From NCBI GenBank assembly GCA_039545335.1, contig BCIN01000006.1:992001-1056000 (forward strand): a stretch of 64,000 nt of DNA, written 5' to 3'. Under the pieces are notes generated by a model. It was not told the DNA's origin and did not search any database. It worked only from the letters and a program-made list of their open reading frames with translations. Position numbers and translations under genes: made by a program. Positions 14,928 to 62,733 of the stretch are shown one piece after another; positions within the stretch are counted from its first letter, which is position 1, and every line of letters starts with the position of its first letter. This stretch comes from Kondoa subrosea (taxonomy: Eukaryota).

Positions 14928-16084
14928 GGACTGTGCACGGATACTGAAAGGAGCTATATCTACATGAAATGGAAACCTCTCTCCTTCTCTTCCATTCTAA
15001 GACTGTCGCACGCTCATCTTCTGCTGGATCGCGAGCGATGAACCCGAGGTCGCTCATCGTCGTAAGAATCGCTTCGGCTTGGTCGAGATCTATGCCCTGC
15101 ACCTGATCCTGATCCCGAGCCCGAGCCAGCTCTTGCGCGATTCCAAGCTTCATCAAGTGCTCTTGCTTTCGCACTGGTAGGAGTGCGACTGAGGTTGATT
15201 TTAAGCAGAGAAATATGCATCCCTATATCGACTCACGGAGTGCGAGGTGTACGACCATGACGAGGAGACTCTTCCTCGTATGAATTGATCGAGTAATCGT
15301 CTGCATCTCTGTATCTGCGAGAACCGCCTGATGCACCTGAGCCAGTAGTAAACGCGGAACCTTCGAAGTAGCCGGAGCCTGCGTGAACTGAACCAGGAGT
15401 ACCAGCGAAGCGACCTAATGGACACTCCTTAATGAGCTAGGTAATGAGAAGATCAAAGGGAGCCTCACTTTGAGAGAAACTGCTGCCAGCAACAGGAGTA
15501 GGGTTGGACGGGTACTGCAGCTCTTATCAGCTACTACGAGGTATCATGATCACAAAACCAACGTTATAGCCATCATCTGAGCCGACATTGTGAGCAACAA
15601 CATGCGAGCACAACAAAAATGCTTACATGCTGAATGAGATGCATAGCTACTATGGGCGCTAGGATATTGCGCCATATCCGGACGTGCTTCTCCGTGGCCA
15701 CCATTGACCCATCTGAAGAAATAAAATGTAAGAATAGAATGTCTCGCCTTGGAATGAACAATCTTACGGGAAGAAATCACGCCTACAGGAACGCATAAGC
15801 TATGATGAGTCGCTGCATATCAGTGCGATGCTTACCAGGCGAGTTTCCGTTGCTGTCGTTTAGCTTGAGCTCTTCGCCAGAGGAAAAGAGCCAAGAGAAG
15901 CAAGACAGCAGTCACGCTGACCACGACAGCAATGACGCTAGAGGAGGCAGATGTCAGTCTAGTAAGGGATTTGAAGACATAAGACTGACACGACAGCTGC
16001 TGAATCAGGTTCGCAATCTTCCAGCGTCCCGTCGTCGGCATCATCAGCTCTTCTATAGATCATAACCGGAGAAGGCGAAGCCAT
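14881..16084 (-). CDS. Hypothetical single-pass membrane protein (multi-exon)
   Basis: ATG at 16084 (MASPSPV), hydrophobic helix VIAVVVSVTAVLLLLALFLW followed by basic RRAQAKR; short GT-AG introns; low-complexity tail. 3' end uncertain. Confidence 0.4.
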
Positions 16085-31300: not shown

Positions 31301-33111
31301 ATGAGGTACAATACCGTCATGTATCTGCGTGCCCTCTCGCGGTTTGCTGATCTGCCTTAATGTCAGTCTCCCGACAGAACTTGGTACTTGCATATTGAAA
31401 GCTCTGGCTGAACTTTGGCTGATGTTGTATCGCTCCAGACGAATGGATTCTAGCCCATGTATGTTCAACCGAATTGTTCTGCTGTCCTAGTAGAAGTCGT
31501 CAGCTCATTCTTATCGATTGGTAGCGAATGACAGTAGCGGCAGCTGGAAGGCATGTTTTCCGCGCTCAAGTGTCTCGCTAGCTTTATCTGACCCATCGTC
31601 AATAGTTCGGCCATTTCCACAGTAGCTGGGTAAACTCATGGACATCTGCTGCTCAATCAAGTAGCCTAATCCCCTATATAGCTTTCCATTAGACAGTGTT
31701 AAGAGCAGACTGCAAGTCAAGAGGTATAGTAGCGTCTTGGATTGCGTGCAAAAGACATTCCACGATGAAGGAATCAAAGGTCAGATCTTTGAAGCAAAGG
31801 AAATAAATGCAATTAAAGTCCCTCTTTTTAGGCTTCATGAGAGGGATCTGGGTTCCGTACGTTTCTTGCCACTGTCGCGGGTATTCTCCAAATGACAATT
31901 TATAAAGGTTGGGAACTATCACGATTGTTCGAACGCTCTCGTTCTCAATCTATTCTGGGACGAAGGAAAGACTGAAGCGATATATTGAGGGTCAACCGAG
32001 TAAAGCTCAAATAGCTGGGCTTGGCTTTGCGGGAGGTGCAACGAGCGGAATCCTCAGTATGGTTTATCTTTTCGTCATCGCTACATGGAAATGACTTGCT
32101 TTTTAGTCAGTACTGGATCATGCGCTTTCGAATTAGTCAAAGTAAGAGCTCAGCTGGAATTCCTTATAGCGTGAGTTGATTGTACATCTGCCGCTGAAAC
32201 AGCTGATCATTCACATGTTGCAGATCGAGAACGGGTCAACCGTATGAGCCTAAAGGCACCGTCAAGGGAGCTATAGCGATATATCGACAAGCAGGCATAC
32301 GTGGTCTTTACTATGGTCTTCCCCTCCATACAATGCGAGATACTCTTGGCACCGGTTTCTAGTCAGTCAACATCATATGATGTGTGTGCAATGCTGATTA
32401 AGGTGTAGTTTCGCTATATATGACTCTCTTCGACAAGCTGTTGAGCGGAATTACTCCGATCGACTGCCTTTTGGCTTACCCATCGGTTTGGCTCCTTTTG
32501 CTTGCGGATCTTTGAGTGGTATAGCGTCATGGGTTATTAGTGAGTCATTACATTGACTACCCATTGTGCGATAGCTAATCTGTGTCTAAAGTTTATCCTG
32601 TAGATTTAGTTAAGACCAGAGTCCAGCGAGATGCGCTGGAAGGAGTGGTAGGTCGTTTAGCTCTTTTCGGAGATCTTTCTCTTATCCAGAACTAGCATCC
32701 GCGGATGTCTGCTTGGAGTGTAGGTCTCATGTGTTGCGGTGGGTCATGAAATGCTGATTCGTCACATTGAAACCCAGGTCTTCCGATCGTTATCTGCTCG
32801 GGGTATTACAAGGTTGTATAGAGGGCTAGGAGTGTCGGCGTTCAGAAGTTGTTTTACGCATGTGAGTCTCTACCAACAAGGATTGTTCTCGTCGAACAAT
32901 AGCTAATTTTTCGATTTAGGGTTTGCAATGTAAGTGATCTTGATCATTAGCCAATGGCCTCAGCTTATTTTCGATGACCAGGGTATTGCCTAGAGAAGGT
33001 AAGGCTGTCTTCCCCCTCACGCAGCTCTTGCTCAACTTGACTTTGCCTGATCAGTTTTCTACCGCTATTGTCGCTCGAAGTCAGCGTAAAGGGATAGCGA
33101 CGCCTGCTTAA
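31301..33111 (+). CDS. Mitochondrial carrier family protein (three carrier repeats, many small exons)
   Basis: Carrier signatures GFPLDSVKSRLQ, AFELVKVRAQLE, YPVDLVKTRVQ; GIRGLYYG, LYRGLGVSAFRS. Almost invisible in the ORF track because of intron density. Start uncertain. Confidence 0.85.
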
Positions 33112-39771: not shown

Positions 39772-41270
39772 ATGAAGGCCTACCGCGTGGACAAATACAT
39801 CAAGTCGCTAGAAGAGCTACCTGCCCTGCTGCAAGATGTGCCGGATCCAATTCCAAAAGATGGTGAAGTTCTGGTCGAAAGTGAGCTATACCGTTTGCTG
39901 CCTAGCTCAGCAGCCCTGCCCAGCTTTGCTCCACTGGTCAGGGCTGATCAGTAGCGTTGCGCTGCCTTCTGGTCCGGGCTCACGAGTTCCTGCAGTTCTC
40001 GCATCAGGTCTTAATTTTTTCGACTTACTCCAGACGCAAGGCAAATAGTGAGCTCTCATCGCTGGACGCAGGGCCATGCTGACTGTGAGAACAGTCAAAC
40101 TCAACCTCCATTTCCCTGGTTAGCGGGTTTCGAGTTTGCCGGTCGAGTGATAAGCGAAGCACCTGGCTCACCTTTCAAGAAAGGCGCAAGAGTGTTTGGT
40201 GCAGGTCAAGGAGCTTATGCGGAGAAAATTGCTTCAAGATGGGAACAACTGATTCCTATTCCTGAAGGCATGTCATATGAAGAAGCTTGTGGTCTCTACG
40301 TTACCTAGTCAGCTCCATCCTCTTCGTAAGAGGATAGAGAAACTGATAGTTTATGACTACTTTAGTCCTACTTCATATGCTGCTCTAGTCTTCCGGGCCA
40401 ATGTTCAACCAGGAGAAACGGTTCTTGTTCACGCAGCAGCTGGAGGTGTAGGAATAGCAGCCTGTCAGATTGCGAAAGCACTTGGAGCCAAAGTCATTGC
40501 TACTGCTGGATCTGCCGAGAAGCTCGAAGTCGCAAAGAAATACGGTTACGCTGACTATGCGCTCGATTACCGAAAAGAAGGATGGGAGAATGAAGTCAAG
40601 AAACTTACTGGCGGGAAAGGTGTAGAGTAGGTAACAATCTCGACCGCGAGCTCTTTTATGCTGACATACAGTTTGTGTGAAGTGTGGTATACGACCCTGT
40701 TGGTCTGATCAACAAATCTTTGAAGTGCATCGCCTGGAACGGACGCATCATAGTAGTTGGGTTCGCGGCTGGAAGCATAGAGTAAGCTCTGTCATTAGAC
40801 TACAGGGCGAGCTTGACATATTGCCTTAGATCGGTCAAAACGAATCAGATGCTACTCAAGAATTGTGCTGTTATGGGGGTAAGTCAAGTGTAGTTGGTTT
40901 ATATGAGGTGTATGAAGTTGATCGTTCTTCGCGCGTAGGTATTCTGGGGAGCTTACAGCGTAAAACAGCCTGAAAAGGTTCGCTGCAGCTCAGGTTAGCC
41001 AGTTTCCCGAACTGATCGAGATTGCGGAGCAGGTCAAAGAAACTTGGGACGCTTTGCTGGCAATGTTTGCAAAGAGTAAGCATACCTACTTTTTGATTGA
41101 TGAGCTTGTATTGACAATCATCTTCAGAACAACTCAAACCCATCATTTACGGCAAACCATATCAAGGCCTCGAGAAATTGGCTGAAGGTCTCAAGGCGCT
41201 TTCTGGACGAGACACCTATGGTAAAGCGGTCATCAGCATCAGCCAGACCTCGAACAAGAGCAAGTTGTAA
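39772..41270 (+). CDS. NADPH:quinone oxidoreductase-like medium-chain reductase (zeta-crystallin type), C-terminal PTS1
   Basis: SGLNFFDLLQTQGK, PPFPWLAGFEFAGRV, VLVHAAAGGVG, VYDPVG, WNGRIIVVGFAAG; ends TYGKAVISISQTSNKSKL-stop. Confidence 0.9.
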
Positions 41271-58559: not shown

Positions 58560-59875
58560 ATGCGCGTTACTGTCTTCTCAGTCCTCATCTCGTAAGCCTG
58601 CGCCTCCTGACATTCCTTGCTTCCTTTACTGATCTTACGTGACAGCTTGGCTACTTCAGCTTTGGCTTTAAACTTGCCTGATCACCTCATCAAGAGGCAA
58701 GAAGCTGCAACTCAGACTTTGGATGATCCAGCAATCCTCAACTTTGCTTTGACTTTGGGTGAGTTCGCGTCTTCATAGTCCTGTCCAAAAACTCACTGTG
58801 GTGTCACACTACAGAGCACCTTGAGAATGCTTTCTACAGTCAAGGCTTGAAGAACTATTCTAGCTCAGACTTTGCTTCTGCTTCTGGTTTGGGCAAGATC
58901 ACTTACAACAACGTTCAAGAGATTGGATCTGATGAATCGAACCACGTTGAGCTTCTCACTGGTGCTCTTTCAGCTGGTCGGTCCACCTTTTCTCTCTCTC
59001 TTATATATAGCTGTCACCTAATCTTGAATGATGTTTGACAGCCGGAGCTACTCCAGTCAAGGCTTGCACTTACAAGTTCCCTTCAACCGATGCTAAATCT
59101 TTCCTCGGTTTGGCTCAAGTTTTAGAAGGTGTTGGCGTGTCAGCCTACATTGGAGCAGCTCAATACATTTCCAACCCAGCTTACTTGGAGGTAGCTGCTT
59201 CTATCTTGACTGTTGAAGCTCGTCACAATGCTTTCATTCGAGTGAGTTCTCTTCTCGATTGAACTAAGCCAGTATTGAAACAGCGATTATAGTTGGCCAA
59301 CGGCTACTCTCCTTTCCCTTCACCTTACGATACTGGCTTGTCACCTCGAGCTATCGTTTCTTTGGCTGGCTCTTTCTTCGCTTCTTGCCCTGACGGTTCA
59401 GCACCAACCATTCAACCTTTCCCAGCAGCTACCCTCACTTCAAACAACGCTACTCTAGGATCTACTTTGGCTATTCAAGTCAATTCCACCGTCACTGCCA
59501 ATCAATCGACCATCTACTGCGCTTTCGCTTCAGGCGTGCAAACGGCTTTCTCTACTTACAACAATGGTTCATGCACTCTCCCTAGCCAGAACGTGACTGG
59601 TGGTCAAGTTTATGGATTGCTCACCAACGCAATGAACATTTCCGATGCTTCTACTTTGGCTGGTCCTTTCATTCTCAATGTCGATACCGCCAACAGTGAG
59701 TTTCTTTCTTTCGTGTGCTGCTATGATGAATTGAGCTAATGATGTTTCTGCAGACACTGTCACTGGTTCATCTGCTGCTAAAGATGCTTCAGTTGAAGCA
59801 AAGAGCTCAGGCTTCAAGACCATGGTCGGAGGTGCTGCTTCGGTTGTAGCGTTGATGGCTGCTGTGTTGGTTTAA
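58560..59875 (+). CDS. Secreted ferritin-like (Ferritin_2, Rds1-type) protein, probable GPI-anchor signal
   Basis: Signal peptide [63 protein letters not shown]; hydrophobic C-terminus SSG...[14 protein letters not shown]. Confidence 0.85.
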
Positions 59876-60102: not shown

Positions 60103-60111
60103 AAAAAGAAA
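60103..60111 (-). terminator. Putative RNA polymerase III terminator (TTTCTTTTT)
   Basis: T-rich run with five consecutive T just downstream of the tRNA discriminator base. Confidence 0.55.
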
Positions 60112-60121
60112 GGATTGGAGT

Positions 60122-60262
60122 TTCCTCCAGCCGGGGACGATCCAGCTACCTCTCGCTTTCGAAAATTCGAAGTACTAGGCGAGCGCCTGTTCATATCAAG
60201 GTCAGACAAGGCTCTACAGGCTTCAAATAAGGCTACTGACTCTACCGGTGAGCTATGGAGGA
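60122..60262 (-). tRNA. Doubly interrupted tRNA gene, predicted anticodon AGT (Thr by anticodon; Ala-like body), with a 54-nt spliceosomal-type intron in the D-stem and a 15-nt canonical intron
   Basis: Minus strand: TCCTCCA TA GCTC ACCGGTA GA[gtcagt...ctgac...aacag; 60240-60187]GC G CTCGC CT AGT A[cttcgaattttcgaa]A GCGAG AGGTA GCTGG ATCGTCC CCGGC TGGAGGA A. All four stems pair after removal; T5 terminator about 15 nt downstream (60107-60103). Confidence 0.75.
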
Positions 60263-61425
60263 AGGATAGGAACGCCCTGGTCATCTTAGACAATACAGAC
60301 CAGCTAACCAGGAATTTGTAGAATTTTTGTTCAAGCTTCGGCTTAAGCCCTTGCCTGACCGCTGAGGATCCTAGTCGGAGAAGGAGAAAGAAGACAGAAG
60401 GACCTGACTAGGGGCGATGATTTTGGAGGAGCAGCTAGATTGTAGTAACCAGACTGAGTACTCGCGGTTAAAGAAAGCTTTTAGATACGTGTATCCTAGC
60501 AGGATTGCGACCGTGCACTGCTCTCGTGCCGTCTCATGCTGTTGCTGCACCTTCAATTGAGCACTTACAAGTGAATAGCAAGCGGAAGTGGAAGACCGTT
60601 CGACAAAAGCATGCATACGGAACTCTCAATCACAGTCGTCCCTTTGTTCCAGCAACGTGAGGAGCTTGAGCGCATGGCTGTCTATGCCTTGGCCTTAGAT
60701 CAGCAAGTCACAACACTCGCAGGATGAGAGCTCATTCTTTATCTGTTGCTGATGATGGAGGGGAAGAGACATTGCGCTCTTTTAAGTACATGGCCTACAA
60801 CACTCGGGTAAGTGAAATGTAGAGTCAGAAGAAGACGACTCACTTCAGAAGACATCGCAGTATTCCTTGCCAATATAGGAGATGGACTAAGCGGTTATTG
60901 TGTTTGCTGGAGAGCTTCAATCAATATAGCTGCAGCCTATAGTGGTATGGAAGTCTACGATACATGAGTGCTTGATCGCAGACAATAAGCATAGGATTTG
61001 GACAAGTGACGTTTAATGTTCATAATTGGTTTACTAGAAAGAGCAAGGCGACATGTTTAGATTGTTTGATGCGTTCGTTTTGGAAACAGGTTTGACTTGA
61101 TTCTGGTATGAGAAGGATAGACGGCTTTTGCTGATGCCATACACGGAGGAAGGAAGATAGGTGGTGACGATGAGACCGCATGGCAGCATGGGGGAGCTGT
61201 CAATCTCTTTAAATACGTCGATATTACGAAGAGCATAGGAAAACGACATTTTGATAGTTCACAATACAGAAAGAGCTGCCAAGCCAATCTTGCGATAAGT
61301 ACAGTAGAATGCTCAACAATAACGCCCGACTTACTTCTTGCTCGCATTCCATTCGGCTTAACTAAGAACCCAGAAAATGCGCCGCTTAGCTTCTTCTCCC
61401 TTTCCTCATAGTCCGTCATCTCGGC

Positions 61426-62208
61426 TCACTTGCGTCGTTTATTTGACGCCTTCATCTCCCTTTCTACAATTCGCGGGACCGCTCTCATCCCTGCTTTATT
61501 TGGATGAAACGGCACTTCTCCTTGTAACAAGCCTTTCGTACTCCAAGCCGAAATCCAAGGCTCCCTACTACCAATCGCATGATCGTTACTTTCACCAGTA
61601 ATTGGTACGCGTAAAACGAAAGATCTCTGTTCCGCGGCTCTGACTGTAGCTCGAGCTAGTTTCGCTGCTACTTCTTTATAATGTTCAACTTGTTCTGCAT
61701 TCAGCCAAACGTCGGCTCCAGGCTTTGTTTGCGGACCGAAAGCCGTAATGTATTCGACAAGAATGATCTTAGCTTTTGGTGCTTGCGCGTGTATGAGATC
61801 GAAAGCAGTAAGAAAGCGTTTCTCGAGTTGATCCTCTGTAAGTGGTTCTGTTGCTTCACTTGGCCAAACAGTATTCATCAATCTGCCAATCCAAGTGGCA
61901 AGTAGCTCGTCCTTCATAATTCCTCCTATATAGCCCAGATCGTTTCCTCCACCAGTCATCGTAACAATATCAGTGTTTGAAGGTATCTGACCAATTTGAG
62001 GAGGAAATGTTACACCACGAGAAATTTGAGCTTCGCTGATAAGATTGAGCAGAGTAGCACCAGAGACAGTCAAATCCGTATGTTCGGCATCGAGTGCTTT
62101 AGCCAGCAAAGACCCGTAGTTGACAGACGATCGCATTGCTGCAACATTGCTTAGCGGTTTGAGACCTGGTCCAGCTGCGAAAGAGGAGCCGATGGAGGTG
62201 ATGTGCAT
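61426..62208 (-). CDS. SGNH/GDSL hydrolase (SEST-like esterase), intronless
   Basis: Block I ITSIGSSFAAGPG, block II DLTVSGAT, block III VTMTGGGND, block V PFHPN; single uninterrupted 260-aa ORF. Confidence 0.9.
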   Translation of the reverse strand: MHITSIGSSFAAGPGLKPLSNVAAMRSSVNYGSLLAKALDAEHTDLTVSGATLLNLISEAQISRGVTFPPQIGQIPSNTDIVTMTGGGNDLGYIGGIMKDELLATWIGRLMNTVWPSEATEPLTEDQLEKRFLTAFDLIHAQAPKAKIILVEYITAFGPQTKPGADVWLNAEQVEHYKEVAAKLARATVRAAEQRSFVLRVPITGESNDHAIGSREPWISAWSTKGLLQGEVPFHPNKAGMRAVPRIVEREMKASNKRRK

Positions 62209-62733
62209 CTTATGAGATCAAGTATTCTCCAAGAACTGATACCGCAAGCTATTCGATGACCTGCAATCGCCAAACAAGCTCGGTGCCAGAGGAGATATTT
62301 AGCCTGCACCAGGTACTGTAGCTGCTGCCTACTGTGCTGAAATTGGCCTGATTTGGCCCTTAGCTTGATGGCGGTTTACGGCAAGCTGAAGGAAATTTGA
62401 GCACCTAAGCTTGTTCTGAAGCAACGACCTGGCCTGGCACATAGTCCGCATCAGCAGCGCAGCACAGGGCAGCACTGCTAACCTCAGAGGGCAGGCCTCT
62501 CTCAGCGCCAGCGCAAGGCTCTCGAATCGAGCGGATTAACGAAGTTGCGCAACGCATCGATCCAAACACCAAAGGAGCTCGTCGCGCAGGATTGCAGTCA
62601 TTTTAATCTTCTTCTTTCTCACATCATCGGTTTCTCTGCTCTGGAGTCGGCTGCTCTGGCAATTTAGCCTGCTTTGTATCTGCGACGCAAGAACAAGGAA
62701 TCGAGGACCTCTACTCACGGTCAATCCTCTTCA

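Follow-up and report, generated by a model that had tools for sequence, protein, structure and literature searches.

A very probable spliceosomal-type intron splits the D-stem of a tRNA-Thr(AGT)-type gene in Kondoa subrosea

A 64,000-nucleotide (nt) stretch of the Kondoa subrosea genome (assembly GCA_039545335.1, contig BCIN01000006.1, positions 992,001 to 1,056,000; here called the window and numbered from its first letter) carries on its minus strand a locus that has the parts of a transfer RNA (tRNA) gene and whose D-stem is split by a 54-nt insert with the signals of a messenger RNA (mRNA) intron. The locus runs from 60262 to 60122 and consists of a 22-nt piece, the 54-nt insert and a 65-nt piece (60186-60122). 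Exon 1 (60241-60262, 22 nt) comprises the 5′ strand of the acceptor stem, tRNA positions 8 and 9, the D-stem 5′ strand GCTC, a D-loop with G18, G19 and A21, and the bases GA of the D-stem 3′ strand. By direct reading, an A-box-like element, TAGCTCACCGG, lies inside this exon at 60255-60245. The insert (60187-60240) splits the D-stem 3′ strand GA/GC between tRNA positions 23 and 24. It begins with GTCAGT (60240-60235), contains a CTGAC branch motif at 60205-60201 and finishes with AACAG (60191-60187); the putative branch A at 60202 is 15 nt from the 3′ end, and 14 nt follow the motif.

The 65-nt piece is itself interrupted. Exon 2a (60173-60186, 14 nt) supplies the D-stem 3′ bases GC, position 26, the 5′ strand CTCGC of the anticodon stem and positions 32-37 of the loop, among them the anticodon AGT (60176-60174). 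A 15-nt insert (60158-60172) follows exactly between tRNA positions 37 and 38, the usual site of eukaryotic tRNA introns, and includes a run of four T residues at 60165-60162. Exon 2b (60122-60157, 36 nt) continues with position 38, the anticodon-stem 3′ strand GCGAG, a 5-nt variable loop AGGTA, the T arm, the acceptor 3′ strand TGGAGGA and the discriminator A. The T arm reads GCTGG / ATCGTCC / CCGGC, and its B-box region (60143-60133) contains A54 and T58. The acceptor stem joins TCCTCCA (60262-60256) to TGGAGGA (60129-60123), and the discriminator is A 60122. A first-pass annotation, made from the sequence alone, had described the acceptor stem, the A-box, the split D-stem, the insert signals, the anticodon stem, the T stem and a downstream run of five T residues, and direct reading finds all of them on the minus strand at the positions it gave. 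Its suggestion that this RNA may need two splicing systems implied a second insert for which it gave no position; we place this insert at 60172-60158, at position 37/38, with AGT as the anticodon.

Downstream of the gene body lies a terminator-like T run, TTTCTTTTT (60103-60111), whose five consecutive T residues (60107-60103) start 15 nt past the discriminator. A run of this length within 30 nt downstream is found for 1.4-1.8% of window positions as background. Together with the internal A- and B-box regions, it gives the locus the layout of a candidate RNA polymerase III (Pol III) tRNA gene, in which the two inserts set the boxes about 69 nt farther apart than in an uninterrupted gene. The T at 60263 can pair with the discriminator A (60122), which yields an acceptor stem of eight pairs in the precursor, as drawn by ARAGORN; such a stem might affect the site at which ribonuclease P (RNase P) cuts. 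The 64-kb window holds no second copy of the locus.

The unedited window gave no tRNA with ARAGORN, either with or without its intron option, and no match to the Rfam tRNA family RF00005 at the gathering score, in line with the earlier prediction that standard scanners would probably miss such genes. When the 54 nt at 60187-60240 were deleted in silico, ARAGORN in intron mode reported a tRNA, and when both inserts were deleted it reported a 72-nt tRNA-Thr(AGT) at default settings. The Thr(agt) call persisted up to a threshold of 110% and was gone at 115%. All 21 of the 21 stem pairs form in the ARAGORN drawing of the 72-mer (20 Watson-Crick pairs and one G-T pair), which bears out the claim that precise removal of the 54 nt restores the GCTC/GAGC pairing. 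Stems of 7, 4, 5 and 5 pairs, a 7-nt anticodon loop with T33 and A37 and a 5-nt variable loop make up the cloverleaf of a cytoplasmic elongator tRNA. The minimum-energy fold of the 72-mer, at −29.1 kcal/mol, is essentially this cloverleaf (−28.6 kcal/mol), and shuffled sequences fold at −22.2 ± 3.4 kcal/mol. Direct reading finds T8, A14, G18, G19, A21, T33, A37, G53, T55, C56 and C61, and the bases for the 8-14, 18-55 and 19-56 tertiary pairs are in place; the 15-48 and 54-58 combinations are C/A and A/T. The sets 9-12-23, 13-22-46, 10-25-45 and 26-44 carry what we take to be the usual bases under the standard tRNA scheme. For the form from which only the 54 nt had been removed, ARAGORN offered a Ser(cga) reading with an intron at 33/34, which we rejected because the variable loop is no longer than 5 nt and an intron at 37/38 leaves a standard anticodon loop. 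A relaxed ARAGORN match elsewhere in the window, at 40616-40722, has poor stems and was taken as a false positive.

The behavior of this locus on deletion is specific. We removed every 54-nt segment of the window in turn (63,726 variants) and ran ARAGORN on each; a tRNA appeared at ten adjacent offsets at this locus and at no other place. With the other 70 deletion lengths between 30 and 100 nt, ARAGORN matches arose at four other loci (near 32570, 20866, 8310 and 51927), all with mismatched or G-T-rich stems and none of the four with GT-AG ends. At the locus itself, ARAGORN likewise accepts many alternative deletions of 30-72 nt, owing to the strength of the acceptor, D and T parts, and it tolerates about 50 combinations of boundaries around the insert. 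These alternatives were rejected for their mismatched anticodon stems and long unpaired arms. A perfect GCTC/GAGC D-stem is restored by the GT-AG boundaries, or by an equivalent shift of 1 nt, and by no others.

The window is fungal sequence rich in introns. To describe the mRNA introns of this genome, we collected pairs of long open reading frames in the window that need a GT...AG segment to be joined, which gave 270 junction groups, most of them spurious combinations. Seventeen candidates (16 distinct introns) carry all three splice signals: a GTNNGT start, a CTRAY motif with its branch A 7-27 nt from the end, and a YAG end. Thirteen of the 17 are 46-65 nt long. This set was chosen for its signals, and it therefore describes the introns and does not prove the signals. 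The insert, with its 54 nt, GTCAGT start, branch A 15 nt from the end and CAG terminus, matches the signals of the U2-type GT-AG introns of this genome; the likeness to local mRNA introns that had been noticed by eye thus extends to length, 5′ hexamer, spacing of the branch motif and 3′ end. The hexamer GTCAGT opens 7 of 60 all-signal segments in the window, the insert included, and some of the others have open-frame support. Direct reading of the insert finds none of the hallmarks of a transposon: a target duplication would not exceed 1 nt, and inverted ends are absent. A 10-nt stretch in the middle of the insert that resembles the exon junction suggested an origin by local duplication; this was rejected, as 228 of 2000 shuffles equaled the alignment score.

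The two inserts differ in what they offer to the tRNA splicing endonuclease. At the boundaries of the 54-nt insert, the bulge-helix-bulge (BHB) motif would have a central helix with 2 of 4 pairs and flanking helices with 1 of 4 pairs each, and with the shifted boundary the central helix drops to 0 of 4. The 54-nt insert cannot form a BHB. Removal by the endonuclease through such a structure had been named in the first-pass annotation as an outcome that would tell against a spliceosomal intron. At the 15-nt insert, 3 of 4 pairs form in the central helix and 4 of 4 in the outer helix, which is the anticodon stem. In eukaryotic tRNA introns, the anticodon-intron pair joins position 32 to the antepenultimate base of the intron, according to the available part of a review (PMC10275265), and here C32 pairs with the antepenultimate G(−3) of the 15-nt insert. 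Judged by its sequence, the 15-nt insert would behave like an ordinary tRNA intron of eukaryotes. The absence of a BHB at one insert and pairing of this type at the other indicate that the two are of different kinds. The proposal that two removal systems would be needed gains from this, with a spliceosomal-type insert that lacks a BHB in the D-stem and a canonical tRNA intron at 37/38.

The observation of a split tRNA is thus real and statistically solid, and the insert is very probably spliceosomal-type intron sequence within a tRNA-type gene. As the explanation we tentatively prefer, with confidence just short of even, the locus would be a tRNA-Thr(AGU)-type gene whose transcript is matured by the spliceosome and then by the tRNA endonuclease. 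In this scheme, the primary transcript would be spliced in the nucleus by the spliceosome at GTCAGT...CTGAC...CAG, joining GA to GC and completing the D-stem. The tRNA body would exist only after the 54 nt have been removed, and the endonuclease, which needs that body to measure out and cut the 15-nt intron, would act second. Ligation and end processing would come last. The fuller claim, that this is a working tRNA-Thr gene whose Pol III transcript needs both splicing systems in sequence, which would make it the first known case of a tRNA that depends on the spliceosome, we hold as a possibility with clearly less confidence.

Several observations weigh against this preferred explanation. The loss of the ARAGORN call at 115% marks the 72-nt form as a moderate tRNA, not a strong one. 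With the Rfam tRNA model, no match was obtained at E values up to 10, either on the unedited segment 59900-60500 or on exon 2 as an isolated stretch; on the locus, Rfam gave only sub-threshold matches to unrelated families. Four positions deviate by direct reading (C15, A48, A54 and T58), and all four are, as we understand it, nearly invariant in tRNA: C15/A48 presumably lacks the usual 15-48 pair, and A54/T58 reverses what we take to be the usual T54-A58. The A54/T58 deviation would also weaken the B-box region. A U1-A72 pair is, to our understanding, unusual for a threonine tRNA. A single locus was examined, and an odd single copy of a gene family that normally has many could be dispensable. 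The 5′ splice site may be poorly accessible, since GT, with which the intron opens, can take the place of GC in the unspliced D-stem and would thereby hide the site; the 5′ exon is only 22 nt long, and the predicted probability that the 5′ splice site is unpaired is low. The signals are in themselves not rare: about 25 all-signal segments of 45-65 nt, free in length and position, are expected by chance per window and 64 are observed, and the argument therefore rests on the coincidence of the signals with the tRNA boundaries. Transcription, spliceosomal removal and tRNA function are all inferred from the sequence.

Of the rival explanations, the one that survives best is that the locus is a disabled copy of a multi-copy threonine tRNA family, which received an insertion derived from an intron and is now a decaying pseudogene; whether or not the insert is spliced, it would yield no working tRNA. 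The insertion could have come about by reverse splicing of an excised intron into the transcript, followed by reverse transcription and recombination, or as filler DNA at a break, and reverse splicing is a published idea for intron gain in small nuclear RNA (snRNA) genes, as set out in the available portion of PMC5855946. A dead copy would also account for the deviations at positions 15, 48, 54 and 58, of which the T-loop and B-box region contains two, and it fits the lack of a match to the Rfam tRNA model even for exon 2 by itself, the moderate ARAGORN score and the single locus seen. Decay would nevertheless have spared a great deal: all 21 stem pairs are intact, and so are the anticodon loop, the terminator, the canonical intron including the anticodon-intron pair, and all three splice signals. 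Had random decay gone on long enough to alter four loop positions, one would also expect damage among the 42 stem bases. We consider this explanation less likely than a gene matured by two splicing systems, and it is the one to be taken most seriously beside it.

Improbable, in our estimate, is a tRNA-like module within a non-coding or untranslated RNA made by RNA polymerase II (Pol II), in which the locus would be a pair of exons and the 54 nt an ordinary intron; RNase P and ribonuclease Z (RNase Z) would free the tRNA-like part, or this part would serve a structural role. Transcripts of Pol II are where a spliceosomal intron would most naturally occur, and a gene for an SGNH hydrolase lies on the same strand about 1.1 kb upstream of the locus. 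The minus strand between 57.4 and 64 kb has no other intron-like segment, however, and the stop-free frame that runs through the locus belongs to no Pfam family and has a repetitive 710-residue sequence as its sole library match. The A- and B-box regions, and the run of five T residues that immediately follows the gene, agree with a Pol III unit instead.

We give a still lower probability to chance, by which a tRNA gene or pseudogene would have received an unrelated insertion of 54 nt that happens to carry GTCAGT, CTGAC and CAG. In its favor are the number of all-signal segments of 45-65 nt that the analytic rate predicts per window, the boundary combinations accepted by ARAGORN and the selection of the finding by eye out of a very large scan. 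Among 127,892 54-mers of the window, only two carry all the signals, the insert being one of them, and the analytic rate is 9e-6. For fixed boundaries the chance would thus be about 1e-5, and since about 50 combinations are tolerated, the fair figure for the signals, taken over all of these boundaries, is about 5e-4 and not 1e-5. Chance would have to explain in addition why the GT-AG boundaries or their 1-nt shift are the only ones that give a perfect GCTC/GAGC stem and why the length falls within the narrow range of the local introns.

We regard it as very improbable that the insert is an ectopic tRNA intron of the kind that the tRNA splicing endonuclease cuts out in Cyanidioschyzon merolae or archaea. 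Nuclear tRNA genes of C. merolae do have D-stem introns that are processed through BHB motifs, according to the accessible text of PMC3728597. At the 54-nt insert the pairing falls short in the central and both flanking helices, and in the predicted fold of the precursor the cut sites do not fall within paired bulges. The endonucleases of fungi take their measure from the mature tRNA body (available part of PMC10275265), which is incomplete here. The least probable explanation is that the locus is no tRNA and belongs to a pair of minus-strand protein-coding exons: a stop-free frame of 169 codons (60407-59898) is open with or without the insert, whose 54 nt are a multiple of three, and has one library match at E = 3.8e-12, but this value is inflated because the matched sequence, the only one found among 1.84 billion representatives, is internally repetitive (710 residues, 11 matching stretches of 16-29 bits each), the frame belongs to no Pfam family, about two stop-free frames of this length are expected by chance in the six frames of 64 kb by our own estimate, and the cloverleaf evidence opposes it.

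A gene split in this manner has precedents of several kinds. The introns of mRNA type that are documented in non-coding RNA genes include those of the U6 (Pol III), U1, U2 and U5 snRNA genes and of ribosomal RNA (rRNA) genes; reverse splicing has been proposed as the origin of the snRNA introns, and the determinants of insertion into non-coding RNAs are called unclear in the part of PMC5855946 available to us. The U6 and red-yeast snRNA background given in the first-pass annotation agrees with this source. It cites Tani and Ohshima (1989, 1991) for the Schizosaccharomyces pombe U6 intron, and Takahashi (1993, 1996) and Bhattacharya (2000) for the U1, U2 and U5 introns of the red yeast Rhodotorula hasegawae and for introns in rRNA genes. 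By analogy, the U6 gene of fission yeast is the precedent for a Pol III transcript handled by the spliceosome. As far as the available text goes, it shares with our locus a short GT-AG intron with a branch site in a small, structured RNA gene of Pol III type, and our locus would likewise call for the spliceosome to act on an RNA other than mRNA. The differences are that U6 sits within the spliceosome's active site, a position from which intron gain through reverse splicing is usually argued, whereas a tRNA does not, that the splicing of U6 was shown experimentally, whereas the tRNA-Thr case is known from sequence alone, and that the tRNA-Thr RNA would also need a second, protein-only splicing system.

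The snRNA introns of R. hasegawae and the introns in rRNA genes, as described in the same partial source, resemble the present case as repeated gains of mRNA-type introns by fungal non-coding RNA genes, and this red yeast is a basidiomycete. The class of RNA differs, and we do not draw a link of lineage from the 29-40% identities of a TAP42 fragment in the window. Closer to tRNA itself is tRNA-Ile(UAU) of C. merolae, for which the available text of PMC3728597 describes a nuclear gene with a D-stem intron and a 37/38 intron that standard scanners miss, and for which an ordered removal was proposed with the 37/38 intron last. Most of the C. merolae introns form a BHB or a relaxed BHB, some of them without the central helix, and are cut by the tRNA endonuclease, whereas the insert at our locus has spliceosomal signals and no BHB. 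The same source mentions the nucleomorph of Guillardia theta, in which tRNA introns also occur outside 37/38 and most cannot form a BHB; no spliceosomal signals are claimed for them there, and the genome is that of the reduced remnant nucleus of an alga, not of a fungus. For a spliceosomal intron in a tRNA gene, our literature search, with subscription-only papers outside its reach, found no report, and the available parts of two tRNA reviews (PMC4033280, PMC10275265) contain no mention. In the sections available, the second of these, from 2023, brings in the spliceosome only as a contrast.

In the usual view, tRNA introns are the task of a protein endonuclease and a ligase and mRNA introns that of the spliceosome, and the two are treated as separate worlds. 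If a tRNA-Thr gene is in fact matured by both, the list of non-coding RNA genes with mRNA-type introns (U6, U1, U2, U5 and rRNA) would extend to an RNA that is never part of the spliceosome, which would bear on how introns are gained. Nature would then offer a second example of spliceosomal splicing of a Pol III-type transcript, and two maturation pathways would be bound to a fixed order. Counts of tRNA genes made with standard scanners could then be incomplete in intron-rich fungi, and a hidden class of tRNA genes would be implied. If the locus is merely a dead gene copy, it would still be a clean intron-like insertion into a non-coding gene, of modest interest.

Searches beyond the window gave the following. 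Both exon edges with a free gap of 35-65 nt had no match in contigs of prokaryote genomes, as expected for a fungal sequence. A 21-nt stretch of the T arm and acceptor stem matched four loci in metagenome contigs, which we rejected as chance matches in GC-rich bacterial coding sequence, none of them tRNA-like.

Within the insert, GTCAG (60240-60236) is the exact reverse complement of CTGAC (60205-60201), and the 5′ splice site and the branch site could pair with each other inside the intron. At 15938-16008, two intron candidates with all signals overlap on opposite strands, and at most one of them can be real. Mirror-image false positives of this kind arise from the signal set because GTCAG and CTGAC are reverse complements.

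The window contains further elements for which similarity searches or sequence inspection gave a label. The SGNH hydrolase gene (61426-62217, minus strand) is intronless; its best match, which carries no name, has 56% identity and its named matches are ascomycetes below 50%. The best named matches of the TAP42 fragment are basidiomycetes at 29-40% identity, among them several Pucciniomycotina (Microbotryomycetes, Rhodotorula, Mixia and Microbotryum) and several Agaricomycetes. Taken together, the matches of the two genes point to a fungus with few sampled relatives, probably a basidiomycete. The conflict between the affinities of these two genes could reflect a patchy distribution or gene transfer. 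The 710-residue sequence matched by the 169-codon frame is built of tandem repeats of about 60 residues, mostly covers the part of the frame downstream of the tRNA, and looks like a translated DNA repeat and not like a protein. On the plus strand, a ferritin-like gene (58700-59875), so labeled from its sequence and with a largest exon that belongs to no Pfam family, is convergent with the tRNA locus, with about 230 nt between its stop codon and the run of five T residues. Its four introns are about 50-65 nt long by eye and have the same start and end signals, with a looser branch-like motif of the form CTNAY.

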